A DNA stretch of 64,000 nt from NCBI GenBank assembly GCA_951406725.2, contig OX597820.1:2790001-2854000 (forward strand), read 5' to 3'. A program made the position numbers and the translations under genes. The stretch's first letter is position 1; each line of letters begins with the position of its first letter. Below are positions 5,344 to 62,496 of the stretch, piece by piece. Below the pieces are notes generated by a model. The model had not been told where the DNA came from. It saw only the letters and a program-made list of their open reading frames with translations, and did not search any database. The stretch comes from Octopus vulgaris (taxonomy: Eukaryota).

Positions 5344-5892
5344 ACATCCTACAGCTGCCAAAAGTTCCATCCTTATTCTTCGGGATCCAACTTGACCAAA
5401 TGCAAATGGGATTCTCTACATTCTGCTCAATCTAATATCTACAAATATTCTACTCTTTGCCAACCAAAAACTACAAATTTTGTTGAAAACAATGGCCTCA
5501 GGAAGTTTAAACCGTACCAAAACACAAGTATCTTATCTAAAAAACATTCATTCTTCCCTCTTTATAATCATGAGAGGACATTTTCTATGGAATCTTATTA
5601 TAGATTTTTCTCTCCAGACTTTTTACCAATAAAATATTCATATGAATTTCTCACTTATATTCACACCCTGACTGGCTGCCCCTGGTGGGCCAGTATACTT
5701 GTTGGCACCTGTCTGTTGAGGTCCTTTATAACTTTTCCTTTGGCTGTTTATTCATTATACATTATTGCAAAAGTCGAGTTGCTTCAACCTGAGATACGAA
5801 GACTGTCGCATCGCCTCAAAATCGAAACTGCTAAAGCTGTACGGCAATTTGGATGGGAAATGAACCATGCTCGGATTAAGTATAATCATTCG
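5344..5892 (+). CDS. COX18: COX18 exon 2 (Oxa1/YidC-family insertase)
   Basis: Acceptor tttctctcccacag; encodes HTLTGCPWWASILVGTCLLRSFITFPLAVYSLYIIAKVELLQPEI, a typical Oxa1/COX18 TM1 region; donor TCG/GTAAGT, phase 0. Confidence 0.95.
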
Positions 5893-8751
5893 GTAAGTTG
5901 AAGATGTTTAACGTTTTCTTTACACTCAAATTATTCTGTCAATCGTAACATTTATTAATTCACATTGTTTTGAATTAATCCTGCTTTATCACTTGGCTGC
6001 AAGATTTTATTCATGTGATTATTTATTTCTAACAACCTACACCAGTGTCGCATAACCAGCCCCAGCCCATTCAAAAGTGCCTTGGATCGTTGGGTGACAT
6101 GCTGTGCTTGAGGAGGCCTATTGAGTCAAGTACATCAACATCAATATCAAAATCAAAATCAAATGGAAATTGTAGTTGTGACCCCTGTACCGGTAGCACA
6201 TAAAAATTGCACCATCTGAACCTGGTCGATGCCAGTGCCGCTTTGACTGGCTTCTGTGCTGGTGGCACGTAAAAAGCACCATCTGATCTTGGTCGATGCC
6301 ACCCCCCTCTGGCACATAAAAAGCACCCACTACACTCTCAGAGTGGTTGGCGTTAGGAAGGGCATCTAGCTGTAGAAACACTGCCAGATCAGATTGGGGC
6401 CTGGTGCAGCCACTTGGCTTCCCAGACCCTGGTCGAACCGTCCAACCCATGCTAGCATGGAAAACGGACGTTAAACGATGATGATGACGATGATTGTAGG
6501 GTAGGTGTAAGAGACCAGCTCTGGTCAGTTTGAACATAAAAACAGGGGAAATATTTTGGCCAGATATGGCTGGTTAAAGTGCTGAAGGATTAATACTGGG
6601 GTCAGCAGCATGTAGGTGGGTGGGATGCTGCTCATAAGTGGGCCACTGAGGTGTTTTCTGGTGGGGATTAGACCCTTTCTAAAGCTGTTTCAAAGACACC
6701 CATTCCTGTCCCTCTGTCCTACTCTAACCTCTCATCACCTGTCACAGAAACACCCGCCCCCCTCCCCACCTGCTCAGTCGAGGGAACTCATGGGTTACTT
6801 GGTGACCTCATTGGTGCAGGTGCTGTGTGAAAAGCCCCCAGTACACTCTGTAAAGTGGTTGGCATTAGGAAGGGTTCCCAGCTGTAGAAACCATGTCAAA
6901 GTAGACATGGGAGCCTGGTTCAGTCCTCACACCAGTTCCTGTCAAACTATCCAACCCATATCTGCATGGAAAGCAGATGTTCAATAATAACGATGATTGT
7001 GGGCCACTGAGTTGTTGAAGGCTTTTAGATGGGGTTTTTTTTTTGTGTTATGATTTGTTTAATCTTTGCTGACATAAACGTAACCGTTGATAGTAATGGA
7101 TGCATATGTAGTTCTGTTTTTATATTTAAGATATGATACATCTACTCTTGCTTATTATGGGGTTGGAGGGTGGCTGAAAAAAAAAGAGTAAAAAAACGGT
7201 GTTAAACAAGTCACTGATAAATGAATAAGGGAAAAATAGGGTTTCATTCTGAGACCCCAGGTTGTCCCTGTAACTCACCCAAATAACACCAAACATTTTT
7301 TGAACACATAATGATACTGTTTCATGGCTGGAATAATATTTAGAGTAAAATTTAATAACAAACAATCAATTAATAATGAAAATATAAAAGTGGAAAATAT
7401 TTCATCATCATCATCGTTTAATGTCCATCTTCCATGCATGCATGGGTAGGATGGTTGACATGAGCTGGCCAAGTAGGAAAACTACTCTAGGCTTCTGTGT
7501 CTGTTTTGGCAGGGTTTTTACATCTGGATGCCCTTCCCAAACCCCAACCACTCTGCAGAGTGGACTCAGTGTTTTTGATGTGGCACAAGCACAGGTGAGG
7601 TCAGTTTTGGCATGGTTTTTACAGCTGGATGCCCTTCCAAATGCCAACCACTTTATAGTGTGGACTGGATGCTTTTTACGTGGCACCTGCACTGGCAGGG
7701 TCACCAAGTACCTTGCAAGACGGTGGTAATCAGAACATTTTGGGTAGCTGAGCAATGTAAGTGGTTGCAGAAGCGCCGTTTTGTGCCAGAAGCAGAATCC
7801 TTCACCGATCGTCAATCTGTTTAATCACAGACTAATCCATGCTAAGCTTAACACAGTTCAAAACTGAGCTTACTTTATTATCCTGGATCAGTGATACACA
7901 AGGATAAATGTGTAATATATAGGTGGAGCATCATCATCATCATCATCCATGTGCCCTCCAGTTCCCTTTGTGTTGCCATGTATACAATCAGCCAGGTCCT
8001 TGTTTTCAGGCCATTCTTTATTGTCTTTTGTCCACAAATATCTTTGCTGGCCCCTTGGTTCTCTTCCCCTTCACATTTCTTGTCAGGTTAGTCTTGGAGA
8101 ATGACTCATGGTGCAGTCTATGTTGAAAATATGATAGTCTTGTGGACTTGATTCTTAACGGCAGGTGTCTTTGGACTTCCAACATTTCTAGCACTGCAGC
8201 ATTGGTTACCTCGTGTTTCCGGACTACTCTGGCCAATCTGTGAGAGATCCACATCTCAAAGGCCTCTGTCTACTCCTTCGATGCTCCCTACATTGTCCCA
8301 CTTTCGGTCCTGTGCAAATGTCAAAATATTAAAACCAGGGCAATAAAGAAAGAAAGGTGCAAATACTTACTTTGTATCAATAATGGAGACAATTAAATAT
8401 TTTAAGATTTAACCCATTAGCATTTAAAGTGACCATATCTGGGTAAAATACCCTACATGCTTTATGTTCAAACTGGCCACATCTGGTCTCTCACACCTAC
8501 CCTACAATGTCATTCTAAAAATTAACAATTGCCTCATCAAAATCTCAAAGCTACCAGGTAAATGTAGGATTAATTCAAAACAATGTAAATAAGCATTGCT
8601 TTTGACAGACTAATGAGTATGATGCAGGGATGCTTAACGATCATTCTTTTATGAAGCTTGGAACGAAAAGTTCTGGTTTAATTATATTTCTTTAAAAAAT
8701 TTATCTTCGATCTGTGTAAACTTCGTTACAGGTGTGCATTTTTAATTTCAG

Positions 8752-8982: not shown

Positions 8983-9685
8983 GCAGGTGACATGTAAAAC
9001 GCACCCCTGCAGGTAACAGGTAAAATGCACCCCTGCAGGTAACAGGTAAAACGCACCCCTGCAGGTAACAGGTAAAACGCACCCCTGCAGGTAACAGGTA
9101 AAATGCACCCCTGCAGGTAACAGGTAAAACGCACCCCTGCAGGTAACAGGTAAAATGCACCCCTGCAGGTAACAGGTAAAATGCACCCCTGCAGGTAACA
9201 GGTAAAACGCACCCCTGCAGGTAACAGGTAAAACGCACCCCTGCAGGTAACAGGTAAAATGCACCCCTGCAGGTAACAGGTAAAACGCACCCCTGCAGGT
9301 AACAGGTAAAACGCACCCCTGCAGGTAACAGGTAAAACGCACCCCTGCAGGTAACAGGTAAAATGCACCCCTGCAGGTAACAGGTAAAATGCACCCCTGC
9401 AGGTAACAGGTAAAACGCACCCCTGCAGGTAGCAGGTAAAATGCACCCCTGCAGATAACAGGTAAAATGCACCCCTGCAGGTAACAGGTAAACGCACCCC
9501 TGCAGGTAACAGGTAAAACGCACCCCTGCAGGTAACAGGTAAAATGCACCCCTGCAGGTAACAGGTAAAACGCACCCCTGCAGGTAACAGGTAAAACGCA
9601 CCCCTGCAGGTAACAGGTAAAACGCACCCCTGCAGGTAACAGGTAAAATGCACCCCTGCAGGTAACAGGTAAAATGCACACCTGC
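8983..9685 (+). repeat. 26-bp minisatellite GCAGGTAACAGGTAAAA(C/T)GCACCCCT, ~27 units
   Basis: Near-perfect tandem array; no unique spacers. Confidence 0.97.
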
Positions 9686-10862
9686 TGGTCCTATGTAAAA
9701 AGCATTGCTGTTGGTGCCACATAAAAGGCACTGGTGCTGGTGCCATGTAAAAAAGAACCCAGTGCCACTCTGTAAAGTGGTTGGCGTTAGGAAGGGCACT
9801 CAGCTGTAGAAACCAGGCCAAAACAGACAATTGGAGCCTGGTGCAGCTCTCCAGCCATGCCAGCTCCTATGAAACCAGCAAACCCATGCCAGCATGGAAA
9901 ACAGATTTTGTCGGTGGCACGTAAAAACCACCAACTGATCGTGGCTATTGCCAGCCTCCCCTGGCACCTGTGCCAGTGACACGTAAAAAGCACCCACTAC
10001 ACTCTCGGAGTGGTTGGCGTTAGGAAGGGCATCCAGCTGTAGAAACACTGCCAGATCAGAAAATTGGAGCCTGGTGCAGCTCTCCAGCCATGCCAGTTCC
10101 TGTCAAACCACCTAACCCATGCTAGCATGGAAAAGGGACGTTAAACAATGATGATAATGATGATAATATATGGCTACACCCAGCTCTCCTAATGTCTCAA
10201 TAACAATATTTCATTTAGCTTCACTGTAAATTGCCTCATTTCTGCTCTCTTAACCTAAATGTTTCTCCCATTTATTAACTCATTCCTTACCTGCAGTGAC
10301 CTGTAATCTTTTCTGTTATGAAATTCTCTTTATTGTAGAATGCTAATTACAAATCCCACCTCATTGTACCTGTTATTCCAGTCGCTCTGCAGACTGTGAG
10401 CATTTACAACCCACGTTTATATTCTTTCACTTGTTTCAGTCATTTGACTGTGGCCATGCTGGGGCACCGCCCTGAAGGGTTTCACTTGAAGAAATCAACT
10501 CCAGAACATTTTTTGAAGCTTGATACTTATTTTATCAGTCTTTCTTTGCCAAACCACTAAGTTACAGGGATGTAAACAAACCGAGATCATTATTAAGTGG
10601 TGGTGGGAGACAAACACAACAACACACACATACATGCATACACACACACACACACACCATCATCGTCGTCATCGTTTAATGTCCACTTTCCATGCTGGCA
10701 TGATTTGGGACTGTTTGATTGAGGTCTGGAGAGCCAGAAGGCTGCACCAGGCTCCAATATGATCTGGCAAGGTTTCTACAGCTGGATGCCATTCCTAATG
10801 CCAACCACTCCGAGAGTGTGGTGGGTGCTTTTTACATGCTACTGGCTTGGGAGCCAGTCAGA

Positions 10863-13143
10863 CGGTATGGATATTGTACTACGGAGGAACCTCTAGGCGA
10901 CTCTGATCATGCTATGATCATCGCCAATCTGGTTCTTGCGGGTAACAAAAACCTGAACCATCTCCAATCTGCTTCCTTCGATTGGAAGAGAGCAGATTGG
11001 AACCTGTACCACACTGAACTACAGCACCCAAACTGGCATGAATTCTACAACTCTGGAGATGTGAATACTATACTCCAGAGTATCCTGGACTCAATATGGG
11101 CAGCATGTGCAGCATCAGTGCCACGTAAACAGAAAAAGAAGAACCGCCCCAAAAGTGCAATTTGGGAAACTTCAGCAGTCCGACTTGCCAGGAAGGAACG
11201 TCGGACTGCTGAACGGGAATACAAGTTGCATAAATCAGACACCAACAGGAAAAAGCGGAATAAATCTTCCAACCATCTCAAGCAAGTGACAAAAAATGCA
11301 GTGCTTGAATTTGAACAGTGCATAGCAGCCAATCCTGACAGCAAGGTTTTCTGGAAATATGTGCATTCGAAGCAGAGACCTCACTCTCCAGTGGGCCCTC
11401 TTCGCAACCCTCACACAAACCAGATCACTGACGATCCCAAGGAATGCGCAGAACTCATTGCTGAGTGCTATGCAAACATATTCACTGTTGAAAGTCAAAA
11501 ATGTACCATCTTCACCATCTCTAACAGCAAATTCCATAACAACTATGGAATTTACACCTGCAATGCTGCGACGTCACCTTCAAAATAAGTGCAACTATGC
11601 CTCCCCTGGTCTAGATGGAGTTACATACCTGCTTCTCAAACGTGGCAGGTACTTCCTTTTACACCAGCTTTCTATTTTTTTCCAGTACTGTCTCAACAAT
11701 GGTGCTACTCCGGAGCAGTGGAAAACTGCCAGTGTCATTCCTCTGTTCAAAAAGGGTGACCGCACATCACCTGTCAACTATCGCCCAGTCAGTCTCACTA
11801 GCTTTATTGCAAAACTGATGGAATCGTGTGTCAAAGAAACACTCTGGAACTTCTGGAGCTCTCACAGTCTCATCCGACCCTCACAATATGGATTTGTCCC
11901 TAACTCCAGCTGCAGTGACCAGCTTGTCGAGTTCCTTGAGGACATTACTCAGATCACTGACAGTGGCTCATGGGTGGATGTTGTCTACCTTGACTTTGCT
12001 AAGGCTTTCAACTCTGTGCCACACAAAAGGCTTATGGTGAAACTCTCTGCAATGGGTGTGAGGGATGACCTTTTTAACTGGTTGAAATCCTTCATCCTCA
12101 GCCGAAAGGAGGTAGTCACAGTTCTAGGACAGCATTCTACACCATATGAGATGTCATCGGATGTACCACAGGGATCTGTCCTTGGTCCCCTCTTGTTTGT
12201 GGCATACATTAATGACATAGATGCCAATTTAAAGAATGCCACAGTATTGAAATATGCAGACGACATCAAGCTGTACCTTGAAATCAAGAGGACAGATCCT
12301 GTTGTCTACAGCTCTTTCCTGCAATCAGACCTGGACACAATGCAGCAATGGATCACAGACTGGCAACTGAAACTGGCTTTGAACAAGTGTACCACCATGC
12401 ATTTTGGGAGAAAAAACCCTGCATCCACATACTCCCTCCACAACACTGATATCAAGAAATCCTCTTGCGAGCGTGACCTAGGCATCACTGTCAGCAGTGA
12501 TTTGCGTTGGACAAAGCATATCTCTAAAATTGTCAAGAAGGCCGAGGGTGTCTTGGCATCACTTAGCAAGACTTTTGTTAGCCACTCTCCAGCCATCTAT
12601 TTAAAGCTGTATACAGCTATGGTACGACCACACTTGGAATTCGCATAATCAGTTTGGAACCCCTATCTTGCTCAGAACATTGACCTCCTGGAATCTGTCC
12701 AGAGACGTGCAACCAAACGCATACCCTCCATCAGACACCTACCATATTCTGAGCACCTTGTTTCCCTGGGCATGGATTCACTGAAGCTCCGGCGTCTGGC
12801 GACGGACTTGGTAAACACCCACAAAGTTATCAACCACCTCACCAACAACGACACTGAACACCTTTTTGATCTCCATGTGTCTAACACACGTGGACATGCC
12901 TACAAAGTCAGAAAACAGCACAGCTCCCATGACTTTCGGAAACATTTCTTCACGCTCAGAGTTGCTGAAGCATGGAATAAACTGCCTGCGTCAGTTGTTG
13001 ACTGCCATGACACTGCATCCTTTAAGGCCCTCATGCTTTCCGAAATCCGCCGAAACTACACCTGATTATATATACACTTTAGATGAATTGTAGTGCACCT
13101 GAGCACTGTACACAATTATTATTATTATTATTATTTATTTATT
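10863..13143 (+). mobile_element. CR1/L2-clade LINE, 5'-truncated, in COX18 intron 3
   Basis: End of APE endonuclease (LGDSDH); RT motifs NYRPVSLTS, YLDFAKAF, VPQGSVLGPLLF, YADD; C-terminal TRGH..FF..RV...WN.LP; one frameshift near 11500 and a stop at 12646; (ATT)n tail. Confidence 0.93.
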
Positions 13144-16197: not shown

Positions 16198-16292
16198 TGA
16201 CTGTGGTTGCAGCAACATCTCGTCATCATCGTTTGAAAAAGTAATTACAACTTATTTCTCTTACGCTCATGAATCTATTTTCGTCATTTCAG

Positions 16293-16417
16293 AGAACCAT
16301 CTCTTCCACCCTGAGCTGGAGACTGAAGGCCTGCTATGGGTCTCCAACATGTTGCTACCAGACAGCACATGGATCCTTCCCGTAGCACTTGGACTCATTA
16401 ACCTTTCCATTATTGAA
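16293..16417 (+). CDS. COX18: COX18 exon 4
   Basis: Acceptor tcgtcatttcag; (E)NHLFHPELETEGLLWVSNMLLPDSTWILPVALGLINLSIIE, the Oxa1-family GxLWxxxLxxPD motif; donor GAA/GTAAGT. Confidence 0.95.
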
Positions 16418-16553
16418 GTAAGTTCATTAATTTTGTTTTAATATGAAATCTTGTCATGATGTGATTAAATTCACTAACGATATACGGAGAGATTAACAAG
16501 TGAAATGAATCAGAAACTCAAAGACATCAACAAGTACAAAGCGTATCCAATAT

Positions 16554-46708: not shown

Positions 46709-47466
46709 CTGCAACAAACGGTAAAGTTTATTAATGGCGTGTATTTTATCAAAAGGTTCAAACAATTAAAATTTTGATGCGGAGCCAACAGAATTTGAGG
46801 GGAGGGGGGGAAGCCATTGACTTCGACCTCGGTATTTAACTGGTACTTATTTTAACGGCCCCGAAAGAATGAAAGATAAAGTCGAACTTGATGGAATTTG
46901 AACTGAGGGCCCAAAAGAGGATGAAATGCCACGAAGCATCGTGTCCGGCGTGTTGATGATTGTGGCAGCTCACCCCCCCCACCCTGAATAGAATTAATAA
47001 TTACTGATCTAAAATTTTGGCACACGGCCAGCAATTTCGGGGGAGGGGATAAGTTGACGACGTTGACCCAAGTGAGCAACTGGTACTTATTTTATCGACC
47101 CCGAAAGGATGAAAGGTAAGGCAGAATTTGAACATCAGAACGTAAGAACGGACGAAATGCTGCTAAGCATTTTGTCCGGTGAGCTAACGGTTCTGGCGAC
47201 TGCCTTAAGTTTCAAACAAATAATAAAAGAAAGATGGATGTCATCTGCTATTATTTATTCTTTTATTTGTTTCAGTTATTTGACTGCGGTCATGCTGGAG
47301 CATCGCCTTTAATCGAGCAAATCGACACCAGGACTTATTCTTTGTAAGCCTAGTACTTATTTATTGGTCTCTCTTGCTGAACTGCTTAGTTACGGGGACG
47401 TAAACACACCAGCATCGGTTGTCAAGCGATGTTGGGGGGACAAATACAGACACACAAAACGTATAC

Positions 47467-47580
<114 letters not shown>

Positions 47581-48097
47581 GACGGGCTTCTTTCAGTTTC
47601 CGTCTACCAAATCCACTCACAAGGCTTTGGTCGGCAGGAGGTTATAATAGAAGACACTTGCCAAGGTGCCATGCAGTGGGACTGAACCCGGAACGATGTG
47701 GTTGGTAAGCAAGCTACTTACCACAGAGCCATTCCTGCGCCTATTTATATTGAAGTTTGCTAAAGTTTCCAAATAACGGCAGCATCAAAAATTCGAGATG
47801 CTGTAATTGTGAATATTCCGTTGTTTAGGAAGTGTCTTAAAATACGTTTATCACCCAAAGGTAGGACAAATAACTGCAAGTGTACAAACAACTACAGGTA
47901 TAGTAAACTGAATTCTACTCTATTATTTTTTTGAATGCGTTGTAAGTCTGCCAGGTGTGAAATTGGTAGAATTTTGATGGGAATGTTCCATCAACATTCC
48001 TTGAGTTGATATGTATTTAATTAAAATGTATTGGTTTATGTTTATTCTGGGAGTAGCTGAAACAGTGTGCTTTATTTCAGCAACTGCATCATGTTGT

Positions 48098-48164
<67 letters not shown>

Positions 48165-48265
48165 TAAAAACGGTAAGATAACAAAAGAAAGAAAAAGACC
48201 TCAATTTTATGTAAATAGAGGAACATATCAGTAAATGTAATATGTGACAATTATTCGGTAGCCAA

Positions 48266-48326
48266 GATAAAACTCTGAGTTTCGGATGCCGAGGTGGAAA
48301 TCCACGCCACCATCTCTTCAGTTATC
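48266..48326 (-). ncRNA. Hammerhead ribozyme in the 3' terminal repeat of the Penelope-like element
   Basis: GATAA-CTGAAGA-GATG..CATC-C-GAAA-CTC A GAG-TT-TTATC. Confidence 0.85.
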
Positions 48327-50938
48327 CGGCCATCGGAAAAACGCTATGAAAAATGACCGTTATACAAAGAGAAATTACTGTGTTATTGACCGCTATTTAG
48401 ACAAAAGCGCTATTCGAATGACCGCTAATTAAGGTAGGGGATAAAAAGTTCATAGTATACGCGTAAGTGCGCCTGTTCATACCTACACATGTGCGCCCGG
48501 ATACCCACGTGCGTACGCATACATTCATCGACCCTCACTAGAAAAACGTACACATCTTCACTCGCATCTTTCGCCAAATGTATATGCATATACATACAAA
48601 CCCACACACACACGCGCACCGTAAAAGTTCATACATACGTCTACATACGCACAAGCACAAGAAAAAACAGGGTTACGGGTAACAATGCAGAAAAAAGGCA
48701 TAAGGAAGTATACAAAGAGTAAGCGACGTTTATATACGCACATACCCTTATGCACGCACACACACACACGCCCATATATTCACATACCTGCACACGTCTA
48801 TATACGCATACACACACACGCACGCATAAAAAGGATTATACATACGTCTAAAAAAAACACAGGAAAAATTGTAAAAACACTGAGTAAAATACGTCTATAT
48901 ATATATGTACTCGTATGCACTCACACACGCACACATCTATGTACATACATACCCGCACACACGTACACATCCACACGTGCGTACAAAGGATTCCATATAC
49001 ACGTCTATATAGGCACAGGGAAAAATTCAGGGTGGAAGGTAGAGTACAGAAAAAATTATGTGTAAAAAATATATCTATAAATCAAATTCTCTATAATATA
49101 TGTATAAAAAATATATAAATAAAATAAAAGTAAAAGGTATAATGAGATAAAAAAAACTTGTGCGTGGACATAATATAGAAAGCAAGTTCTATCTGTAATC
49201 TTGAGGGGGACCAAAAACGTAACAAAAATTTGGTCACATGTGAGCATGATCCGAAAACTTCTGTCCTTGAATTTAGACATGTAGCGGGGTCTAAGCTGCT
49301 TTTCCAGATGAGCCATCTTTCCATGTCGCATAGACCACACTTTCCGCTGCCGTTGGTGTAGGGCTTACATTTGGCTAAAATCTTCCAATGGATGTTGTAA
49401 CTGACACCTTTATCTTTTAATGACCATATATGACTGGATAATTTGGTAATTTTCCTTTTGTCCCAAGGTGTGATTATTGAACCTGGCCTTGAAATTACCC
49501 TCTGTAAGGCCCACGTATTTCTTCGTTGAAATCGTGTCTTTAGTGGGTATAGAGTCCACGGTAGCTTCGTAGATGATGGTCTCGGACATGCAAGCTCCAT
49601 TTAGCGGGCATAAATTTTTATCTCTGCATGAACAGCTGTTTTCGTATTGTGATTTTTGTGTGTTGTGTGCGATTGTATTTTTAAAATTGGTAGTTGAGCT
49701 GAAATTAATTTTTAAGTTGTGTTTATTGAAGAGCTTTCTGTAAGTATGGTTAACTGGACAATGTCTATCTATCGGTGCTAAGAAATACTTGCCTATATTG
49801 AAGGTCACCCCGGAGGGAGGTGTGAACCAGATGATCTTCCTATTCCTATTTCTCCTCTTATTTATTGCTGGGCTAGTGATAGGTGTGTAGGTTATTTCTT
49901 CACTAAAACCACTATTTTTTAGAGCCTTATTATATACTGGGGCAACGCTATTAAAAATATCCTTATCGGAGGAGAGGCTAGAAATTCCCTTGCTAATGTT
50001 TTTAATTAAATTTTTAATTACTATAGGGGGATGGCATGAACCTACATTAATATAACTAAGTCTATCATTGGGCTTCATATAAGGCTTATAAATGTTCTTA
50101 TTTAGATCTAAGGATACGTCTAGGAAATTGACAACCGTCAGGTTGGTATCTATAGTTATACTAAGTCCGAAGTTTTTCATTAAATGGATAGTATCCTTCC
50201 TAAATCGATCCTGAGCTGGTCCATTTGTATTAGTGGTTAAGGCGAGGGCATCATTTTTGTAGACGGCGAAATATACATCAGGAAAGGTCTTACCCAACGT
50301 ATCGAGTAGAAATAATCCAATAAGATCGCAAATGCCTGCTCCATCATATGACCCCATGCTCACATCGAAAGCACCCTCTGTGTCGGTAGTTTTGACCCAC
50401 TCTGCGTTCTTGCTGAAAAGTAATGTATTTCTAGCATGGAAGATTATATCCTTATCCTGTGTACTGATTTCTATGAAGTCGCTAGCGAAGACGAGGGCTT
50501 TATCTAGCAGTTCTTTAAAGATAGAGGCATAAAAATCGACAATATCTAATTGTGTAAACCTCGCTTTTTTCTTATTCTCAATGGCTTTAAACCAGTCGAC
50601 GACTTCTATACTATTGGATCATTGTACAAGCCTAGTGGCGGTCTTAATTTTCGCATTTATTTTTCCTAAAATTTCTTTACTAATAATGCCAAGTTCTGAT
50701 TTAGCAGGGTTAATAAGCCTACATTTAGGGTTGGATAGGAAGCTCTCTTTGTGGTCTTTGATTGTAATAAAGGCCTCTTTGTTGGGAAGGACCTCTATTT
50801 TTTAATCTAATTTAAGTCTAGCGGCGACAACGCTAGCTTCTTTGTTAATTTCGTAATAGGTCTGTGGCCTTGCCTTGGTGTAATTATTAATGATGCTGTT
50901 GTGTAAGAGTTGTAAATATTTGCTGTGAATATTGGCCG

Positions 50939-50999
50939 GATAACTGAAGAGATGGTGGTGTGGATTTCCACCTCGGCATCCGAAACTCAGAGTTTTATC
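50939..50999 (+). ncRNA. Hammerhead ribozyme in the inverted 5' terminal repeat of the Penelope-like element
   Basis: Near-identical inverted copy of 48266-48326. Confidence 0.85.
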
Positions 51000-51025
51000 T
51001 TGGCTACCGAATAATTGTCACATAT

Positions 51026-51128
<103 letters not shown>

Positions 51129-51828
51129 ATGCATATATGGGTACAATACATAAAAAAACGAAACGTAGACAAAATGAGAAACGAGAACACAAAAAACAAA
51201 AACATAGAAAACGAACATTTTTCGAACAACGAAAGAAACAAACAAACAGGGAAGCGAGACAAGCAACATAAAGAACAATCCCTTCATCAGTTGTCCCCTG
51301 TTTTATCTACTCCGCGTTTCAAAAGTAGGGACAAGATGTGACTTTGGGATTTTTTTGCGGTGGTAACAAAAACAGGACAGCGAGAACAAAACAGTAAAAA
51401 CAAACGGTGAGGCTGTTAAGCCAAGGATGTTGCACTAACGATCGCCAGATCGCTGGTTCGATTCCCCGACAGGGCGTTGCGTTGTGTTCTTGAGCAAAAC
51501 ACTTCATTCCACATTGCTTGGTGATCATTTCGACACACTAGCGTTGTTAGGGGGCGGGGCGGCACTTTTAAAAGGGCACCACCTTTGGGTCTGCTGTAGG
51601 CAATATGTTTTTTTTTTTTTGTGGTGTCCGGGGGTGGGGCTACGCTAGTGTTTCTACATCTGACGTGTGGCACACCTGTACACCTTTACAGGTAATGTCG
51701 ATTTGATTGAGGGAAGCGAGCTTATGTGCAACACTACAACTTGATCACTCTAAACAAATCATCTGTGGTTGTCCGGCAAGGAATGGCGGAATCCTCGTCT
51801 GTCGTTTAACGACGGGAGATTCCATATT

Positions 51829-51941
<113 letters not shown>

Positions 51942-52177
51942 CCTAACGTCCATCCAACTGACAGAAAAATGAAATGTGAGCAAAAAGTCGCCCTCCAGTC
52001 TTTAATTAAATCCTCAGATGACTGACGTTACACACTATTAACCGCATCCAGCAACCCTATGATTAAAATAACACACAATGAAATATTTCTAGAAAATTAA
52101 CGAGGCAGAATATTAGCAATAGATTATTTACATTATTTACATTTGACGGATATTTCTCCCCATCTGGTTTGTTGTTA

Positions 52178-52218
52178 ACACGTTTCGGCTGATATACCCT
52201 CCAGGCTTCATCAGGTGT
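52178..52218 (-). ncRNA. Degenerate hammerhead motif (cleavage triplet deleted)
   Basis: ACAC-CTGATGA-A-GCCTGG AGGGTATA TCAGCC-GAAA-C-GTGT; same family as 26561. Confidence 0.55.
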
Positions 52219-53132
52219 CTTGGGGGAAATTTCGAACCTGTATATTACAGAATGTGCAACCTACTGCCTCACATACCTTCCCGCTGGCCATATTTACTTA
52301 ATCCATTAACTGCCAAATTTTTTCACTCATATTTTTTGGATTTGCCAAATGTCTTAGGAGTTAAAACAATATATAATATTTAAATTTTCTTCATATGTGA
52401 ATTATTTTGGAAATTATAAATTTTTCGAAAAGTCCCAAACAAGTATATTTATCCTTTTCTATTCAATTGCAATAATAAACATTTTAGTTTTTTTTTTTTT
52501 GAAACTGTAGTATCAAATGCGAAGGTGTATGAAATATCAACGAATGATATAAATGGGAAATGCAAAAACAAAACAAAATACATTTTCAGAACAGTCAATA
52601 TTTTTGTAGTTCAAAAATTGCGATTTATGACATAAAATGTCCTCTAGAATTAACCAGAGCCAATAAGGACAAACTTTAACTGCTAAAATATTGTTAAGCC
52701 CACCTCTGCAAATACAATGTCCATAAGCAATTCACTTTAAATACAACGGACAGCCGGCTTATGGGGCTCATGGCAGGCAATGTGTTATTATATAACGATT
52801 AAAATTGCTCAGTTGATTAGTTGGCCGGTTGCAATATTTGTCATGGCATCTATAGTGTTGGGGAACTAACTTGGGCACCATTTCTCTGTCTCAGATGACT
52901 ACCATGTTGATTTTCCCCACAATCGCTAAGTGGCCCTGGATATCAGCCACAACTCATTTCACCGTCTGCCTTGATGCGTTTCAACAAAACGCCTCGTTCT
53001 GGTTTTATTTCTGCTGAGTTATACAAACATAATGACTCTTAAAAAGCTTATCTCAATCAACTGATTCAGTGAATATAAACATGATGATCTCTCTCTAGTG
53101 GCTTTGAAGATGACAATATTGTGAAAACCCAA

Positions 53133-53348
53133 AGGCGGCGAGCTGGCAGACACGTTAGCACGCCGGGCGAAATGCTCGGCGGTATTTCGTCTGTCTTTAC
53201 GTTCTGAGTTCAAATTCCGCCGAGGTCGACTTTGCCTTTCATCTTTTCGGGGTGTATAAATTAAATATTAGTTGCGAACTGGAATCGATCTAATCGACTG
53301 GCTCCTTCCCCCCAAATTTCGGGCCTTGTGCCTTGAGTAGAAAAGAAT
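53133..53348 (+). mobile_element. SINE family B (other copies, mostly tandem pairs, at 25236-25680, 26785-27190, 29215-29645, 46780-47205; single at 22035-22230)
   Basis: GGCGGCGAGCTGGCAGA...GAGTTCAAATTCC B box; central GCCTTTCATCCTTTCGGGGTCGATAAA block. Confidence 0.85.
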
Positions 53349-54408
53349 ACTGTGAAGACCAATGATCATGGGGTTTGTGGAAACTAAAGCGGGATGTCTC
53401 GGTTATTTATCAGCAGTTGGTAAGCTCTTGTCTCAGATACTAAATCGATTTGGCGATCGATTCGAATGAATATATTGCATGCGATGGAAAAATTAGTTTC
53501 CATCTTCAAGCGAAACTGTTGATATGTTTTTTGCTGTCAGACAACTTCCAGAAAAAAGAGAGAGAAAAAAAAACGGAAACGATTCATTTTCATCTTTATG
53601 ACCTGTTCTTGAAACAGTGCCGAGATCCATCTTACGGAGAAAAGTCTAGAATTCCGATGCCAAAAGCATTTCAACTACACGGCTTAATCACTTCATAGTG
53701 GCAGAAATGTCGAGTGCCGCACTAAGATGAACTGCCTCTTCAATTCAAGACTGTGTACTTGCATTTCTCATGTTTTCAATGAGAGGTGCAAGTACACAGT
53801 CTCTTGTCGGTCCGAGGTTACAATAGATGGCACTTGCCCAAGGTGCCACGCAGTAGGATCCAACTCCAAAGCATGTGACTGGGAAACAAACTCCTCGCCA
53901 CACAGTCGTGTCTGTGCCAAGAAGTCGCGCAATCATCATGTGTGTATGTATATACATATACATCCACACATCCACACACACATGTCCTGGATACGACATT
54001 AAACTGCATTCGATGGGGATGTTCCAGTCCTGGAATTGTGCGGTGATTGGAGACACTCCACAATGACCATTAATCCCAGGTCCGTTCTGACCCGTTGCGG
54101 TAGTCCTTGTCAGGTTACCATTTATGAACTAAATAGCTTTCCCAAGGGCAGAGGGGTCTCCCGTTATATTTGACATAACCGTTGGGTAGGCAGCCGTTGT
54201 AGGAGAAAGATACCCTGATATAAAACTTACAGTGGAAATAGGAGCAGCCATCTTGCAATGCTTGTCATTGGAAACTGTTTTGGCGACCGAGAATATCAAA
54301 GATGTTGCTCAAGCTTTTGTTTCTTTGGGCAAGTGTCTTCTACTATAGCCTCGGATCGACCAAAGCATTGTGAGTGGATTTGGTAGGCGGAAACTGAAAG
54401 AAGTCTAT

Positions 54409-54462
<54 letters not shown>

Positions 54463-54545
54463 GGTCCCGGGTTGATTCGGGGTTAACCACAGTAAATAAG
54501 GTACTCAATACATAGCAGAGTAAAATTAATTTATTATATAGAAGG

Positions 54546-54596
54546 AGCCTCTACAGGACTAGAACTGTTTCATTCAAGAGAAATCTTCAGGAAGCT
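54546..54596 (-). ncRNA. Type I hammerhead ribozyme, left end of fold-back element
   Basis: AGCTTC-CTGAAGA-TTTC TCTT GAAT-GAAA-CAG TTCTAGTC CTG-TA-GAGGCT (one G-U in stem I). Confidence 0.8.
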
Positions 54597-54909
54597 AGTT
54601 AACAAGAATTGCTTTGGCATTTATACATTTAGGCAGGTTTAAAGGGGTGGTGGTGGGGGACTTTTTGGGGGTAGGCATAGCGCAAAATATCATACTTGGG
54701 GGAGTGGTCAAGGAGTCAGTGGTAAATTAGATAAAAGAATAAATAAAAGAATAAAAAAATATATAGAAGAATAGAGTTTTAGGTAAATAAGGAGATTCTC
54801 ACTTATACCTATACACATATGTATACATATATACACACACACACATATACATACACACATACATACACACACACATTTTTATATACACATACATATACAT
54901 ACATATATC

Positions 54910-54957
<48 letters not shown>

Positions 54958-55130
54958 TATGCATATACATATACACACACACATGTATATATACACACAC
55001 GACCACACATACATATACACACAAAAAAATATATACATACACACACATACACATACACACATACACACACATATCCACATACACACACAACACACAAGTC
55101 CCTATATACACATATATACATATACACACA

Positions 55131-55162
<32 letters not shown>

Positions 55163-55551
55163 CATATGTGTACCTATACATACCTACACATACACACGTA
55201 TACATACAAATACAAACCCATTCCCTAATTTTAATTTTATTATCTTCATTTATTACTTTTGTTATCTTTGACCGCTGGTCACAAGCATCTTGGCTACGAC
55301 AGCAAGTCCATTTATCTTTCTACTTGAACACAAGCACTCACTCACGCACGCACACTCACTCACTCATTCGTACACTCATACACATACACGCACGCACGCG
55401 TTATATTCATACATACATACATCTACATACATTCACGTATATACACATACGTACGCGTACCTACAGATTCATGTCTACACTCTTAGAAGACTAGTCTATA
55501 CATATACACCAATAAATATATATACACACATACATATACACCTACATACAA

Positions 55552-55584
<33 letters not shown>

Positions 55585-55711
55585 CGTATATATACATACA
55601 TACACCCATACATACATACATATATACACATACACACACCCACATGTATACATATACATACATATACGCGCATGCATACACACACATATACATACACATA
55701 CACATATACAT

Positions 55712-55760
<49 letters not shown>

Positions 55761-56057
55761 CATACATATACATACATACATATACATATATACACACACA
55801 CATACATACACATATACACATACACGCACATACACATATACATGCGTACCCATACACACACACACACACGCGCATCCATCTATACACATAAGTACACACA
55901 TGCGTAAAAGTATACATATATCTATGCTTACACATACACACACACACGCGCCTCCTTATGTTCATACTTACATGCATACTCAAAAAATAAATAATAAATA
56001 TTAAGTATATATACGTGCAGTTACCTATTATACAGACGGATACATACATATAAACTT

Positions 56058-56108
<51 letters not shown>

Positions 56109-56248
56109 CTACACATATGTACATATACATACACACATACATAACTCTACGTACCTACATATACATAAACACACGAGCGTACACGTATATGTACATATAC
56201 ACATACACATACACACACATATATACATACATACATATACATACACAC

Positions 56249-56309
<61 letters not shown>

Positions 56310-56318
56310 CATATACAT

Positions 56319-56378
<60 letters not shown>

Positions 56379-56502
56379 ATGTATGTGTGTATGTGTATGT
56401 GTGTGTATGCATGCGCGTATATGTATGTATATGTATACGTGTGGGTGTGTGTATGTGTATATATGTATGTATGTATGGGTGTATGTATGTATGTATATAT
56501 AC

Positions 56503-56548
<46 letters not shown>

Positions 56549-56933
56549 TTGTATGTAGGTGTATATGTATGTGTGTATATATATTTATTGGTGTATATGT
56601 ATAGACTAGTCTTCTAAGAGTGTAGACATGAATCTGTAGGTACGCGTACGTATGTGTATATACGTGAATGTATGTAGATGTATGTATGTATGAATATAAC
56701 GCGTGCGTGCGTGTATGTGTATGAGTGTACGAATGAGTGAGTGTGCGTGCGTGAGTGAGTGCTTGTGTTCAAGTAGAAAGATAAATGGACTTGCTGTCGT
56801 AGCCAAGATGCTTGTGACCAGCGGTCAAAGATAACAAAAGTAATAAATGAAGATAATAAAATTAAAATTAGGGAATGGGTTTGTATTTGTATGTATATGT
56901 GTGTATGTGTAGGTATGTATAGGTACACATATG

Positions 56934-56965
<32 letters not shown>

Positions 56966-57145
56966 TATGTGTATATGTATATATGTGTATATAGGGACTT
57001 GTGTGTTGTGTGTGCATGTGTGTATGTGGATATGTGTGTGTATGTGTGTATGTGTATGTGTGTGTATGTATATATTTTTTGTGTGTATATGTATGTGTGG
57101 TCGTGTGTGTATATATACATGTGTGTGTGTATATGTATATGCATA

Positions 57146-57176
<31 letters not shown>

Positions 57177-57497
57177 GTAGATATATGTATGTATATGTAT
57201 GTGTATATATATATGTGTGTGTGTGTTTGTATGTGTGTATGTATATGTGTGTGTGTGTGTATATATGTATACATATGTGTATAGGTATAAGTGAGAATCT
57301 CCTTATTTACCTAAAACTCTATTCTTCTATATATTTTTTTATTCTTTTATTTATTCTTTTATCTAATTTACCACTGACTCCTTGACCACTCCCCCAAGTA
57401 TGATATTTTTGCGCTATGCCTACCCCCAAAAAGTCCCCCACCACCACCCCTTTAAACCTGCCTAAATGTATAAATGCCAATACAATTCTTGTTAACT

Positions 57498-57548
57498 AGC
57501 TTCCTGAAGATTTCTCTTGAATGAAACAGTTCTAGTCCTGTAGAAGCT
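57498..57548 (+). ncRNA. Type I hammerhead ribozyme, right end of fold-back element
   Basis: AGCTTC-CTGAAGA-TTTC TCTT GAAT-GAAA-CAG TTCTAGTC CTG-TA-GAAGCT; perfect 6-bp stem I, GUA cleavage triplet. Confidence 0.85.
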
Positions 57549-57553
57549 CCTTC

Positions 57554-57625
<72 letters not shown>

Positions 57626-57712
57626 AGAATTTATGAAAAAAACAAAAGACGAAGACAGGTGGTGTACAAAGCAAACAGATGTATTAGTATAACGCTCAGG
57701 AATAGAAACAGT

Positions 57713-57748
57713 CTTTTACGTTTCGAGCCTACGCTCTTCAACAGAAAG
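57713..57748 (-). ncRNA. Minimal hammerhead-like motif (CTGTTGA core variant)
   Basis: CTTT-CTGTTGA-A-GAGC GTAG GCTC-GAAA-CG-TA-AAAG. Confidence 0.55.
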
Positions 57749-58765
57749 GGACACAGAAAAAACAAGGTGAGTGTGTAGTGGCTAATGATCTATCATGGCG
57801 ATGTTTGTGCGTCAGTGTTTGTCCCCCCGCCATCTCTTGACAACCGATGTTGGTGTGTCTGCGTCCCCGTAACCTAGCGATTCGGCAAAAGAGCCCGATA
57901 GAATAAGTACTAGGCTTGCAAAGAATAAGTCCTGGGGTCGATCTGTTCGACTAAAGGCGGTACTCCAGCATGGCCACAGTTAAGTGACTGAAACAAATAA
58001 AAGAACATATATATGAACATATATATATATACACACACACACACATGCATACATGCATATGTATGTATGTATGTATGTATGTATTTTATGTATGTATGTA
58101 TGTATGTATGTATGTATGTATGTGTGTATGTATGTATTTTATGTATGTATGTATGTATGTATGTATGTATGTATGTGTGTATGTAGCCTTTCCTTCTTGG
58201 GCCCTGAACACCTGATATACATATACACGCGTATACATACAGTCCGCCCCTTACATACATATACTGTAATCCGTCGACTATCGCGGGTGTTACGTTCCAA
58301 AACCCCCCGCGATAGGTGAAAATCCGCGAAGTAGAAACAGTACTGCACTGTGTATATATTCTTTTCTTTTACTTGTTTCAGTCATTTGACTGCGGCCATG
58401 CTGGAGCATCGCCTTTAATCGAGCAACTCGACCCCGGGTCTTATACTTTTGTAAGCCCAGTACTTATTCTATCGGTCTCATTTGCCGAACCGCTAAGTAA
58501 CGGGGACATAAACACACCAGCATCGATTGTCAAGCAATGCTAGGTGGACAAACACAGACACACAAATGCATATATCTATATATATATATATATATACATA
58601 TATACAACGGGCTTCTTTCAGTTTCCGTCTACCAAATCCACTCACAAGGTTTCGGTCGGCCCGAAGCTATAGCAGAAGACACTTGCCCAAGGTGCCACGC
58701 ATTAGGACTGAACCCGGAACCATGTGGTTGGTAAACAAGCTACTTATCACACAGCCACTCCTACG

Positions 58766-58812
<47 letters not shown>

Positions 58813-60387
58813 AAGTTATTTTAATAATTTGTATATATTTATTTCATTATAAAAGCAAAACAATATTACGGAGGCATCGACATAAGCTTAAACAATAAAC
58901 CGCGATGTGGCGAGGGATGACTGTATTGTGACATAAGGACTCGATGTGGTCGGGGGACTTCATCGGTCCTTCTAGTTTAACCAGGCAACTAGAGGCATGA
59001 TCGTGTGGTTAAGAAGCTCTCTTTGCAACCGCCCGGTCTCGGGTTCGGCCCCACTGCGCCGCGCCGACTAATGCCTTGAGATTGTATTTGATTGATAGAA
59101 ACTGAATGGAACTAGGCAGAAAGCTGGGGGGGGGGGGGCAGAGCCTTGAAGAATTTTTAGTCGAATCAATTGACCCTAATACTTATATTTCAAGTTTGAT
59201 ACTAATCCTGTCGATCACTTTTGCCGAATTGTTAAATTACAGGGACGTAAACACACCAACACCAGTTATCAAGCGGTGGTGGAAGACAAGACTCTCTCTC
59301 ACACACACACACACACACACATAGATATCTATGTATATATACGACGGGCTCTTTTCGGTTTCCGTTGCCTAAATCCATTCACAAGGCTTTGGTTGACCCA
59401 AGGCTATAGCAGAAGACATTTGCTCAAGGTGCCACGCAGTGGGACTGAACCCGGAACCATGTGAATGAGAAGAAAGTTTCATACCACACAATGTGTGTGT
59501 GTGTGTGTGTGTTTGTCCCCCTACCACCTGACAATCGGTGTTGGTTCGCTTACGTCTCCTATCCAATTGAGACAGATAAAATAAGTGCCATACTTAAAAA
59601 ACAGTTACTGGCGTCGACTTGTTTGAGTAAAACCCTTCAAAGCGGTGCCCCAGCATGGCCGCGGTTCAATAACTAAAACAAACAAAAGATTAAAGATAAA
59701 AGACACCTTGACTATTGTTGTTGTTGTTGTTGTTGAGGTCAGGCTAGACCAGGCTGAGCAGATCCATGATCAAAACCAATCTATCCATGACCATCGATCC
59801 TTTCAGATAATAGTTTATAGCATTCTACAATGTCCAGTATGTCCGTTGTTGTTTTAAAGACAGCAGAATGAGACAAAGAGACAATTGCCTGCTGTTTCTT
59901 GCAGGTCAGGTCAAGCAACTTTGATTAAACAGGGGAAATAGAAAATATTTCGTCTTGATTAAAGGGCAATCTAACCGTGACCATCTATGTTTCTTTTTCA
60001 AGTGTAGTTATCGCATGCTCTATTACAAAATATATATTTTTTAGACTCTAGAATGATATCGACGGTAAAATGGCTACTATTTTGAGAGACTTTGATTAAA
60101 CAGGTATAAACATAAGATTATGCCTTTTTTTGTTTTACCGGGCAGGATCGTGGTTTTAAGAAACTTGCTTTACAAATCAACAAGCACGTGGTTTCCGGTT
60201 GAATTCCACTGCGTGATACCTTAAGCAAGTACCTTCTACCATAGCCCTGGGTCGACTAATGCTTTGTGAGTGAATTTCATAGTTGGAAACTGTGGAAATC
60301 CGCCGTGGGTGTGTGTAACATATGGTATAATTATATACAAGGTAAATTTTAGCCATTTCTCCGCAGACTGAAAGAAAATGATGAACA

Positions 60388-60430
60388 ACCTTAATCGATT
60401 TTCGTACCTTCTTAGGTTCTCATCAGAGGC
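60388..60430 (-). ncRNA. Minimal hammerhead with palindromic stem III
   Basis: GCCT-CTGATGA-GAACCT AAGA AGGTAC-GAAA-ATCGAT-TA-AGGT. Confidence 0.75.
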
Positions 60431-60505
60431 GTCCACATCATTTTGACAATCACGAGAGAAACAAGCAGCCAAACTGTTCATATACTCAACAAATGCAGCA
60501 GTTAC

Positions 60506-60750
<245 letters not shown>

Positions 60751-60856
60751 TAATCCAAACAAGAAAACAAAAAAACAAAAAAAACAACAACGCAAGGATG
60801 TGGAACAAATAAAGCCATTGTCTATCAAGACAGACGGGGATAAAGAATAAAGAAAA

Positions 60857-60908
<52 letters not shown>

Positions 60909-61050
60909 TGTATATACAGAAGGGTCCCCATGAATAGACGAAAGCGTTAATAAACGATTATCCAAAATTCCGACTGACCCCTTTTTCTTAATATACAATA
61001 TCGGTACATCACTTCAAACACTCTCTACATACATGTAATTAATTCCTAGC

Positions 61051-61101
61051 GATATCTGAAGAAGGAATTTTTGTATTCCGAAATATTATTATTATTATAT
61101 C
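61051..61101 (+). ncRNA. Type I hammerhead motif
   Basis: GATAT-CTGAAGA-A-GGAAT TTTTGT ATTCC-GAAA-TA(TTA)n-TT-ATATC. Confidence 0.7.
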
Positions 61102-61216
61102 AGACTATGGATAATTAAATTACAACAGTTCTTATAGTCCACTCTGTTGTGCCATTCAAGACAGCTTATATTTTACAAACAACACACAATGCTTCAAGCG
61201 AACTACAATACTCCCC

Positions 61217-61287
<71 letters not shown>

Positions 61288-61603
61288 TGTGTGCATGTAT
61301 GTACGCGTATATATATATGTATGTGTGTGTGTGCATATATATATATATATATATATAGTTGCTATTATGTTAAACTGTCGTACGTCCAAATTTGGCCGAA
61401 TGCGTTTTGTTTTTCAATATTTATTCTTGGTTGCGATAGCCTGTTCTTTTGGTCAAACTATCGTATCTCCAACTGCTTCAGATACCAAGATATGAAAAAT
61501 TGTCAAAGTGTAGTACAACGGTTTTGGTATGGAATGGTGAAACTATTTTTTTTCCTGAAAAAGCAACGTTTTGGACTTACGATACTTTTGCATAATAGCA
61601 ACG

Positions 61604-61604
<1 letters not shown>

Positions 61605-61634
<30 letters not shown>

Positions 61635-61950
61635 TGTATGTATGTATGTATGTATGTATGTATGCATGTATGTATGTACGTATGTATGTATTTATGTATG
61701 TATGTATGTATGTATATATGTATGTATGCATGTATGTATGTACGTATGTATGTATGTACGTATGTATGTATGTATGTATGTATGTATGTATGTATGTATG
61801 TATGTATGTATGTGTGTATGTATGTATGTATGTACGTATGTATGTATGTATGCATACATGCATGCATGCATGTATGTATGTATGTATAAATGTATGCATG
61901 CATGTATGTATGTATGTATGTATGTATGTATGTATGTATGTATGTATGTG
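61605..61950. repeat. (TATG)n microsatellite
   Basis: Direct inspection. Confidence 0.97.
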
Positions 61951-62496
61951 TATCATAGTGTATCGGTGTGTATGAACGCAGGTGGCTTAGTGGTTAGTGT
62001 AACCGGCCCACGGTTGTAAGGTTGTGAGTTCGCTTCCCTGCGACGCACTGTGTCCTTGAGCATGACTCTTTATTTCACGTTGCTCCTGTCCCTCATCTGG
62101 CAAAGATGAGTTGTACCCGTATTTCAAAGGACCAGCCTGAATCTCCTTACGGACTATGCGTGTCTGTGGAGTACTCAGCCACTTGCACGTTATTTTCAAG
62201 AGTAGGCTGTTCCGTTGATCGGATCCGCTGGAACACTTATAGTCGTAACCTACGAAGTGCCAGTTTGTGTTTGTGTTGGGCCACCACCATCCCTTGACGA
62301 CCGCTGTTAGTTCGTTTACATCTCTGTAACTTGGCAGTTTGCCAAACGAGAACGATAGAATATGTACCAGAATTTAAAAAATAGGTACTGGGGTAGTTAC
62401 GTTCGACAACACCCTTCAGGACGATGCCCCCAGCATGGCCACAGTCCAATGAGTGAAACAAAAGTCAAGGTAAGAAAACAATGATAAAAACCTTAC

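Follow-up and report, generated by a model that had tools for sequence, protein, structure and literature searches.

A 3.1-kb fold-back element in an octopus intron is probably a single Penelope-like insertion of two head-to-head copies

An inverted, 5'-truncated copy and a one-sided tail of 30–40 bp are common in Penelope-like insertions (PMC8557442), and head-to-head repeats with palindromes at their junctions have also been described, together with the capture of 0.9–1.5 kb of host DNA upstream of a pLTR (PMC3846280). One published element, Penelope-13_HM, has a length of 3045 bp, a (TA)n target, an inverted copy at nt 1–966 and hammerheads at 102 (antisense) and 2944 (sense) (PMC8557442). 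A purified Penelope-like protein cuts and extends both target strands, with two reverse transcription start sites that bound the tail, and the hammerhead, which needs the protein, is dispensable for insertion in vitro (PMC11167929); this work was done on an element of a different clade, and inverted copies are outside its scope. As for the ribozymes, pairs of hammerheads on opposite strands, ca. 100–700 bp apart, are on record, G10.1-C11.1 is highly conserved in minimal hammerheads, and those of metazoans have low activity in vitro (PMC4209133). In Octopus vulgaris, 31 Penelope-like families have been recently active (PMC13282606). We have analyzed a stretch of 64,000 nucleotides of this species (assembly GCA_951406725.2, contig OX597820.1, positions 2,790,001 to 2,854,000), referred to as the window and numbered from its first letter, that contains an element of 3.1 kb with a similar layout at 54460–57561.

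The element lies between two (TA)n tracts, of 45 nt on the left (54415–54459) and 63 nt on the right (57560–57622), which mask any target-site duplication on both sides. The local alignment of 54440–55800 with the reverse complement of 56300–57580 comprises 1261 columns, of which 1194 are matches and 13 substitutions, with gaps in 10 runs. Three of the 13 substitutions (54531, 55755 and 55757) are edge effects outside the arms. The true arms, whose exact identity has its outer limit at 54532/57562 and its inner limit at 55754/56336, differ by 10 substitutions and by gaps that are nearly all repeat-length slips. The left arm (54532–55754, - strand) starts with a unique end of ca. 280 nt that is followed by a microsatellite-like body with short unique blocks, and has a (TA)n tract at its inner end (55724–55754); the right arm (56336–57562, + strand) repeats it in inverted orientation. 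Over the unique blocks the two arms are identical at 276 of 280, 141 of 141 and 160 of 160 columns. The loop between them is ca. 580 nt long (55755–56335), and (TA)n tracts account for 13.6% of the element body. The initial annotation, made from the letters alone, had described two arms of ca. 1.2 kb, near reverse complements of each other around a spacer of ca. 0.6 kb and enclosed by (TA)n tracts, and this description stands. It had also spoken of a fold-back capped by hammerheads; the inverted arms and their outward-facing hammerheads are there, but the ends are unequal, with 72 extra nt (54460–54531, - strand) at the left end only and no counterpart at the right.

The polarity of base composition of the left arm runs on, along the same strand, through the so-called spacer and reverses inside the (TA)n tract at 56329–56366, which is the mirror of the tract at 55724–55754. 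It is within this tract that the orientation of the arms flips, and its self-complementary sequence provides 31 perfect pairs. Hence the unit can be read as a main copy of 1.9 kb, composed of the 72-nt 3' tail, the left arm as its 3' part and the loop as its continuation, and an inverted, tail-less copy of 1.2 kb placed head to head with it. We hold with good confidence that the whole is a single, fairly recent insertion without a protein-coding part, that it belongs to an abundant family of Penelope-like elements, probably in the Hydra clade, and that its tailed main copy faces the shorter tail-less one in (TA)n. The marks of a Penelope-like insertion are found at this locus: a type I hammerhead (as a motif) near the 3' end, a head-to-head, inverted and 5'-truncated partner, a one-sided tail and, for the terminal 351 bp, a dispersed multi-copy family. 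The derivation from Penelope initially proposed is in agreement with all of them. In the window the terminal block was not found a second time in direct orientation (direct pLTR or partial tandem); such a repetition is optional in truncated Penelope-like copies.

The mirror symmetry would be a by-product of the insertion and not a designed terminal repeat. What had been taken for an unusually long inverted terminal repeat is better read as the inverted partner, truncated at its 5' end, that typically accompanies a Penelope-like insertion; this arm spans 966 nt in Penelope-13_HM and only 101 bp in a neighboring element (see below). In MITEs and foldback DNA transposons the terminal inverted repeats extend to both termini, and here 72 nt overhang on the left. 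A dedicated non-autonomous family of this MITE- or foldback-like type, with fixed long terminal inverted repeats and moving as a 3.1-kb unit, is improbable in our opinion, even though it would suit an element that has no ORF and a body long for a Hydra-type 3' region, and although non-autonomous Penelope derivatives exist and capture of host DNA upstream of the pLTR has been described for Pen1_Av (PMC3846280). The difference of 72 nt between the ends argues against it, as does the presence of the same layout in elements that do bear ORFs, i.e., the neighbor with its 101-bp arm and Penelope-13_HM with its 966-nt arm. Non-autonomy as such, without fixed repeats, is compatible with arms that were built at insertion.

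Further evidence comes from the family to which the 3' end belongs. The terminal 351 bp were found in 20 of the 24 listed runs, from 10 studies, and none of these 20 is on record as RNA. In the four runs from which contigs were aligned they numbered 13,491, 2,844, 2,874 and 356, at identities of 85–100%; these are short contigs that cover the terminal 351 bp only and give no copy number, and one of the runs may be the source of the window itself. Thousands of contigs at this level of identity indicate that the terminal 351 bp are an abundant dispersed repeat. The tail is covered by contigs in all four runs. In three of the four, some contigs leave the element at 54529, the place that matches the end of the right arm, and pass into (TA)n (at least 11 in run X1, at least 11 in X2 and at least 10 in X5). 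As these loose ends continue as (TA)n, the tail-less end is a terminus of the family. Among the joints listed for the 351 bp, none changed strand; the inversion point is located beyond this stretch.

At the three arm substitutions located in the terminal block (54549, 54612 and 54613) the family majority (ca. 99, 100 and 90% in X1) has the letter of the right arm, from which it follows that the left arm holds the derived letters. This would fit arms that were once identical and drifted later. Two independent insertions in opposite orientation into one (TA)n tract, or two such copies later homogenised by gene conversion, might be expected of an abundant family that targets (TA)n, and the left-arm letter at 54613 sits where ca. 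10% of the family depth departs from the majority. However, the unique blocks of the arms are 98.6–100% identical, whereas 6,041 of the 13,491 X1 contigs are less than 95% alike to the terminal block, and 3' ends that point outwards together with a one-sided tail are the signature of a single event. We regard this origin as very unlikely.

An artefact of assembly or of long-read fold-back has about as little in its favor. The arms are near-identical, many of their differences are repeat-length slips such as consensus errors give, and the family reads are short contigs on 351 bp, none of which spans the locus. Nevertheless, the right arm stops at the tail-less terminus of the family without mirroring into the tail and the left flank, the arms differ by three clean substitutions in unique sequence, and the host exons on either side are collinear and in phase. 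Indirectly, all this supports the genuine locus that had been assumed at the outset. The host is the gene of the predicted O. vulgaris protein P0001 (216 aa, hypothetical protein), matched by an ORF of the window. The gene (27646–62568, - strand) has five exons and codes for a stretch rich in Arg, a single hydrophobic segment and a tail rich in Thr and Ser; one homologue was detected, in a second species of Octopus. The element is bracketed on the - strand by exon 1 (62568–62497) and exon 2 (from 46708), with GT/AG ends, and the O. bimaculoides model aligns across their junction at 67%. The intronic position originally suggested is therefore upheld, the element being inside intron 1 (46709–62496, 15,788 nt). 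Other features were observed in the window on the + strand, among them two exon-like pieces of an inner-membrane insertase (5326–5901 and 16200–16441), presumably COX18-like, of which only the first matched Pfam 60KD_IMP, below the cut-off (E 0.0062). A remnant of a non-LTR retrotransposon reverse transcriptase lies at 10719–13065 (+; RVT_1, E 4.7e-36), and a 26-bp unit is repeated in 27 copies with 96% matches at 8983–9689.

The insertion may have been assembled by twin priming. The endonuclease of the element would make a staggered cut in the (TA)n target, severing both of its strands and leaving two 3' ends. From one of these, reverse transcription would begin at the outer start site, and from the other 72 nt further upstream, at an inner site. 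The two cDNAs would each end prematurely, after ca. 1.9 and 1.2 kb, and would then anneal or join through (TA)n, which is its own complement. Two start sites plus joining through (TA)n would explain why the 3' ends point outwards, why the tail-less terminus is fixed and why the arms are nearly identical, as well as the junction. The (TA)n microhomology at the junction is suggestive, as a single event in which only 7 nt of the turning tract surely belong to the main copy. A serious competitor, to which we give about one chance in three, is a snap-back in which the 3' (TA)n of one cDNA (56329–56366) pairs with its own (TA)n at 55724–55754 and copies back to 54532, or a variant of it with self-priming on an antisense template. 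Self-priming at palindromic junctions has been proposed before (PMC3846280), the flip does sit in a self-complementary tract with all its 31 pairs perfect, and the arms are ca. 99% identical with the microsatellite body included. On the other hand, a snap-back needs an extra reason for the copy-back to halt at the same family-wide point, although a short TA-rich target match at the stop point could supply it, and the tails of 72 and 76 nt in two unrelated elements require an explanation that two reverse transcription start sites provide directly. Twin priming and snap-back yield an identical final sequence; we infer that twin priming is the likelier, at slightly better than an even chance. In the open-licence literature we have found no account joining Penelope, twin priming and microsatellite.

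The two type I hammerheads face outwards, at 57498–57548 on the + strand (C3 57504, H17 57542) and at 54596–54546 on the - strand (C3 54590, N7 54586, H17 54552), the latter being sense on the host pre-mRNA strand. Both have, at the level of the motif, the core CUGAAGA/GAAA, a stem I of 6 bp and a GUA triplet, so that the motif scans recovered the intact-core hammerhead that had been reported at each outer end. A stricter structural scan of the window detected only these two, against a mean of 0.05 and a maximum of 1 in 60 shuffles. The 3-bp stem II is weak and begins with U.U instead of G-C, and stem III has 4 bp and a loop of 8 nt. The Rfam search at the gathering score gave no match of any kind, and an E-value search gave no hammerhead among the 150 listed of 156 weak matches, which were miRNA and comparable noise caused by the microsatellites. 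The exact pattern of the hammerhead had 0 hits in metagenome_contigs and 0 in viral_contigs. The stem III of the right-hand motif (57526–57541) is imperfectly palindromic, with a self-dimer at -12.8 kcal/mol, which recalls dimeric hammerheads, with no tandem partner here.

The comparison was restricted to the 25 Hydra families listed in the hammerhead table of PMC8557442. Fourteen of the 25 have a U after A9 and a U before GAA, and 4 of the 25 have the same 4-bp stem III as the octopus element, whose stem III loop of 8 nt compares with 1–3 nt in all 25 (PMC8557442). The octopus motif itself had no match in the searched rows of the supplement of PMC8557442. The U.U at stem II had been considered as a sign of a dead ribozyme, and this was dropped after the comparison with the 25 families. 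The element combines insertion in (TA)n with a hammerhead of the Hydra-clade kind, i.e., a stem III of 3–4 bp and often a U.U at the base of stem II, with a stem III loop longer than those listed. Within the 51-nt hammerhead, the listed family substitutions fall at 54549 and at N7 (54586), a freely variable position of the core. With 18 variant places listed over the 351 bp, the confinement of variation to N7 besides 54549 is suggestive but not significant.

No protein is encoded by this copy, in keeping with the lack of coding capacity initially noted. The element has 25 stop-free frames of at least 60 aa, all of them low-complexity repeat translations, the top five residues making up at least 0.65 of each frame versus 0.43 in a real ORF, and tblastn with 23 Penelope-like proteins gave 0 matches overlapping the element. 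The RT plus GIY-YIG ORF is not present and we have filed the element as a Penelope-derived insertion and not as an autonomous element. No ORF start was found in the 72-nt tail either, where the ATGs, checked by eye, meet stops within four codons. The body may be a long 3' region of the family, captured host DNA or a non-autonomous derivative.

The same intron contains a second insertion (48162–51027, - strand), Hydra-type and Penelope-like but unrelated to the first, with broken RT and GIY-YIG frames. For these frames 23 homologues were retrieved, and the insertion carries the CxCx5C, CxxC..E and CxH motifs, which are those of the Hydra clade (PMC8557442). Proteins of this clade are further marked by RWK and DKT and by the lack of CCHH. 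It has a 76-nt tail (48162–48237), (TA)n on both sides, an inverted arm that aligns over 101 bp and outward hammerheads at 48327–48265 (-) and 50938–51000 (+). Its 3' region shows the G/T-rich sense bias found in the 3.1-kb element, in a weaker form. A search for related loci with its RT gave 145 pattern matches, of which 0 were confirmed. Several points speak against the assignment of the 3.1-kb element to the Hydra clade. There is no remnant of an RT or endonuclease by which this copy could be placed in a clade, and in DNA comparisons it shares nothing meaningful with its Hydra-type neighbor (best match, 20 nt). Upstream of its hammerhead, 1.77 kb are non-coding, while published Hydra elements are generally below 3 kb, with a single ORF as a further trait of the clade; the tail is about twice the 30–40 bp described, and the stem III loop exceeds the 1–3 nt of the 25 listed families.

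Around these insertions there are other putative traces of similar ends. Just past the right (TA)n tract, at 57623–57760 (-), another element end was noticed by eye, with a hammerhead-like motif of irregular core and a pyrimidine-rich tail into the same tract, which suggests that this tract was struck more than once. Decayed hammerhead-like or tail-like ends were also seen beside TA-rich tracts at 51130–51300 (-), 60388–60430 (-), 60748–60850 (-) and 61051–61101 (+).

A transcript of the full element is predicted to fold with 1146 pairs spanning more than 500 nt on the - (host) strand and 1212 on the +, in line with the hairpin of more than 1 kb of dsRNA anticipated for either strand, both of which give a duplex above 1.1 kb. 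The initial annotation had also envisaged a self-cleaving site at the 3' base of this hairpin. This part is contradicted by the predicted folding, given that the hammerheads lie inside the arms and that on the - strand all 51 of their bases, and on the + strand 50 of the 51, pair with the opposite arm. In a model of the outer arms, forcing the hammerhead fold costs 84–86 kcal/mol. Even isolated, the hammerhead is marginal, with a fold probability of 0.0004–0.0013 in a nearest-neighbor model without tertiary contacts or protein help, and a rival hairpin forms over the 3' strand of stem I. Predicted to be fully paired with its antisense copy, the ribozyme is unlikely to self-cleave in transcripts that include both arms. 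The host pre-mRNA is thus predicted to fold into a 1.2-kb near-perfect duplex burying the hammerhead, which would then not cut; transcripts initiated within the element would avoid this burial. The host-strand hammerhead of the second insertion is likewise predicted to pair with its inverted arm.

The duplex contains 859 adenosines on the host strand. Octopus has a high level of hyper-editing and an exceptionally high fraction of dsRNA-forming loci, although it was left out of the analysis by repeat class (PMC5625713), and Penelope repeats are heavily edited in lizard (PMC5625713) and X. tropicalis (PMC10636886). From these observations, editing is likely if the intron is transcribed. The duplex, put forward initially as a candidate substrate for ADAR hyper-editing or siRNA production, is by analogy a plausible ADAR target, and editing would be no more than the ordinary outcome for a repeat of this kind. 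In X11, a run presumed to be RNA, A>G was noted at 2 places, compared to 1–2 in the other three runs; contigs of a multi-copy family cannot show editing of the locus. The differences between the arms were also considered as the record of an ADAR-edited template (6 A/G versus 1 C/T transition on the sense strand, p ~0.07–0.13), but the bias is not significant and several of the sites are at repeat edges or CpG, so that this reading is not supported. It is conceivable, although we are rather doubtful, that self-inverting Hydra-type Penelope insertions (two start sites ca. 72–76 nt apart, joined by (TA)n) are a major source of long dsRNA in octopus pre-mRNA, explaining much of the excess of dsRNA loci and of the hyper-editing, each silencing its own hammerhead by antisense pairing.

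The layout described here is already known, being the described footprint of Penelope-like insertions with a near-identical published example, and a single locus matters little. It is a clean specimen for the formation of head-to-head copies, with tails of 72 and 76 nt in two unrelated octopus elements and one (TA)n junction, and it bears on which repeats supply the dsRNA behind octopus hyper-editing. Some interest remains in the length of the tails, in the (TA)n junction, in where the microsatellite body came from and in how much such insertions contribute to octopus dsRNA across the genome. Among known systems, the non-LTR retrozymes of animals are also non-coding and Penelope-related and have a type I hammerhead, but they are defined by two or more consecutive head-to-tail units each with a hammerhead, and in the octopus element the hammerheads are on opposite strands and there is no head-to-tail tandem (bioRxiv 10.64898/2026.07.22.740005). 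With the self-folding repeats that are ADAR substrates, i.e., frog Harbinger and lizard Penelope (PMC5625713) and X. tropicalis Penelope (PMC10636886), it shares a long, near-perfect, intramolecular and non-coding duplex for which no second insertion is needed; in those repeats editing has been measured, while in the octopus the duplex is predicted from sequence. Canonical EN+ Penelope insertions (PMC3846280; PMC11167929) have the same head-to-head inverted copy, one-sided tail, palindromic junction and AT-rich target, and differ from the octopus element in that its tail is of 72 nt rather than 30–40, it has no direct pLTR and its junction palindrome is (TA)n. The closest likeness is to Penelope-13_HM and the Hydra-clade elements (PMC8557442). 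Unlike them, the octopus element has no ORF, a microsatellite-like stretch of 1.77 kb that precedes the hammerhead, an 8-nt stem III loop and a 72-nt tail, but it shares with them the (TA)n target, the size of ca. 3 kb, an inverted copy of ca. 1 kb, outward hammerheads at both ends and, in the hammerhead itself, the U after A9, the U before GAA and the 4-bp stem III.
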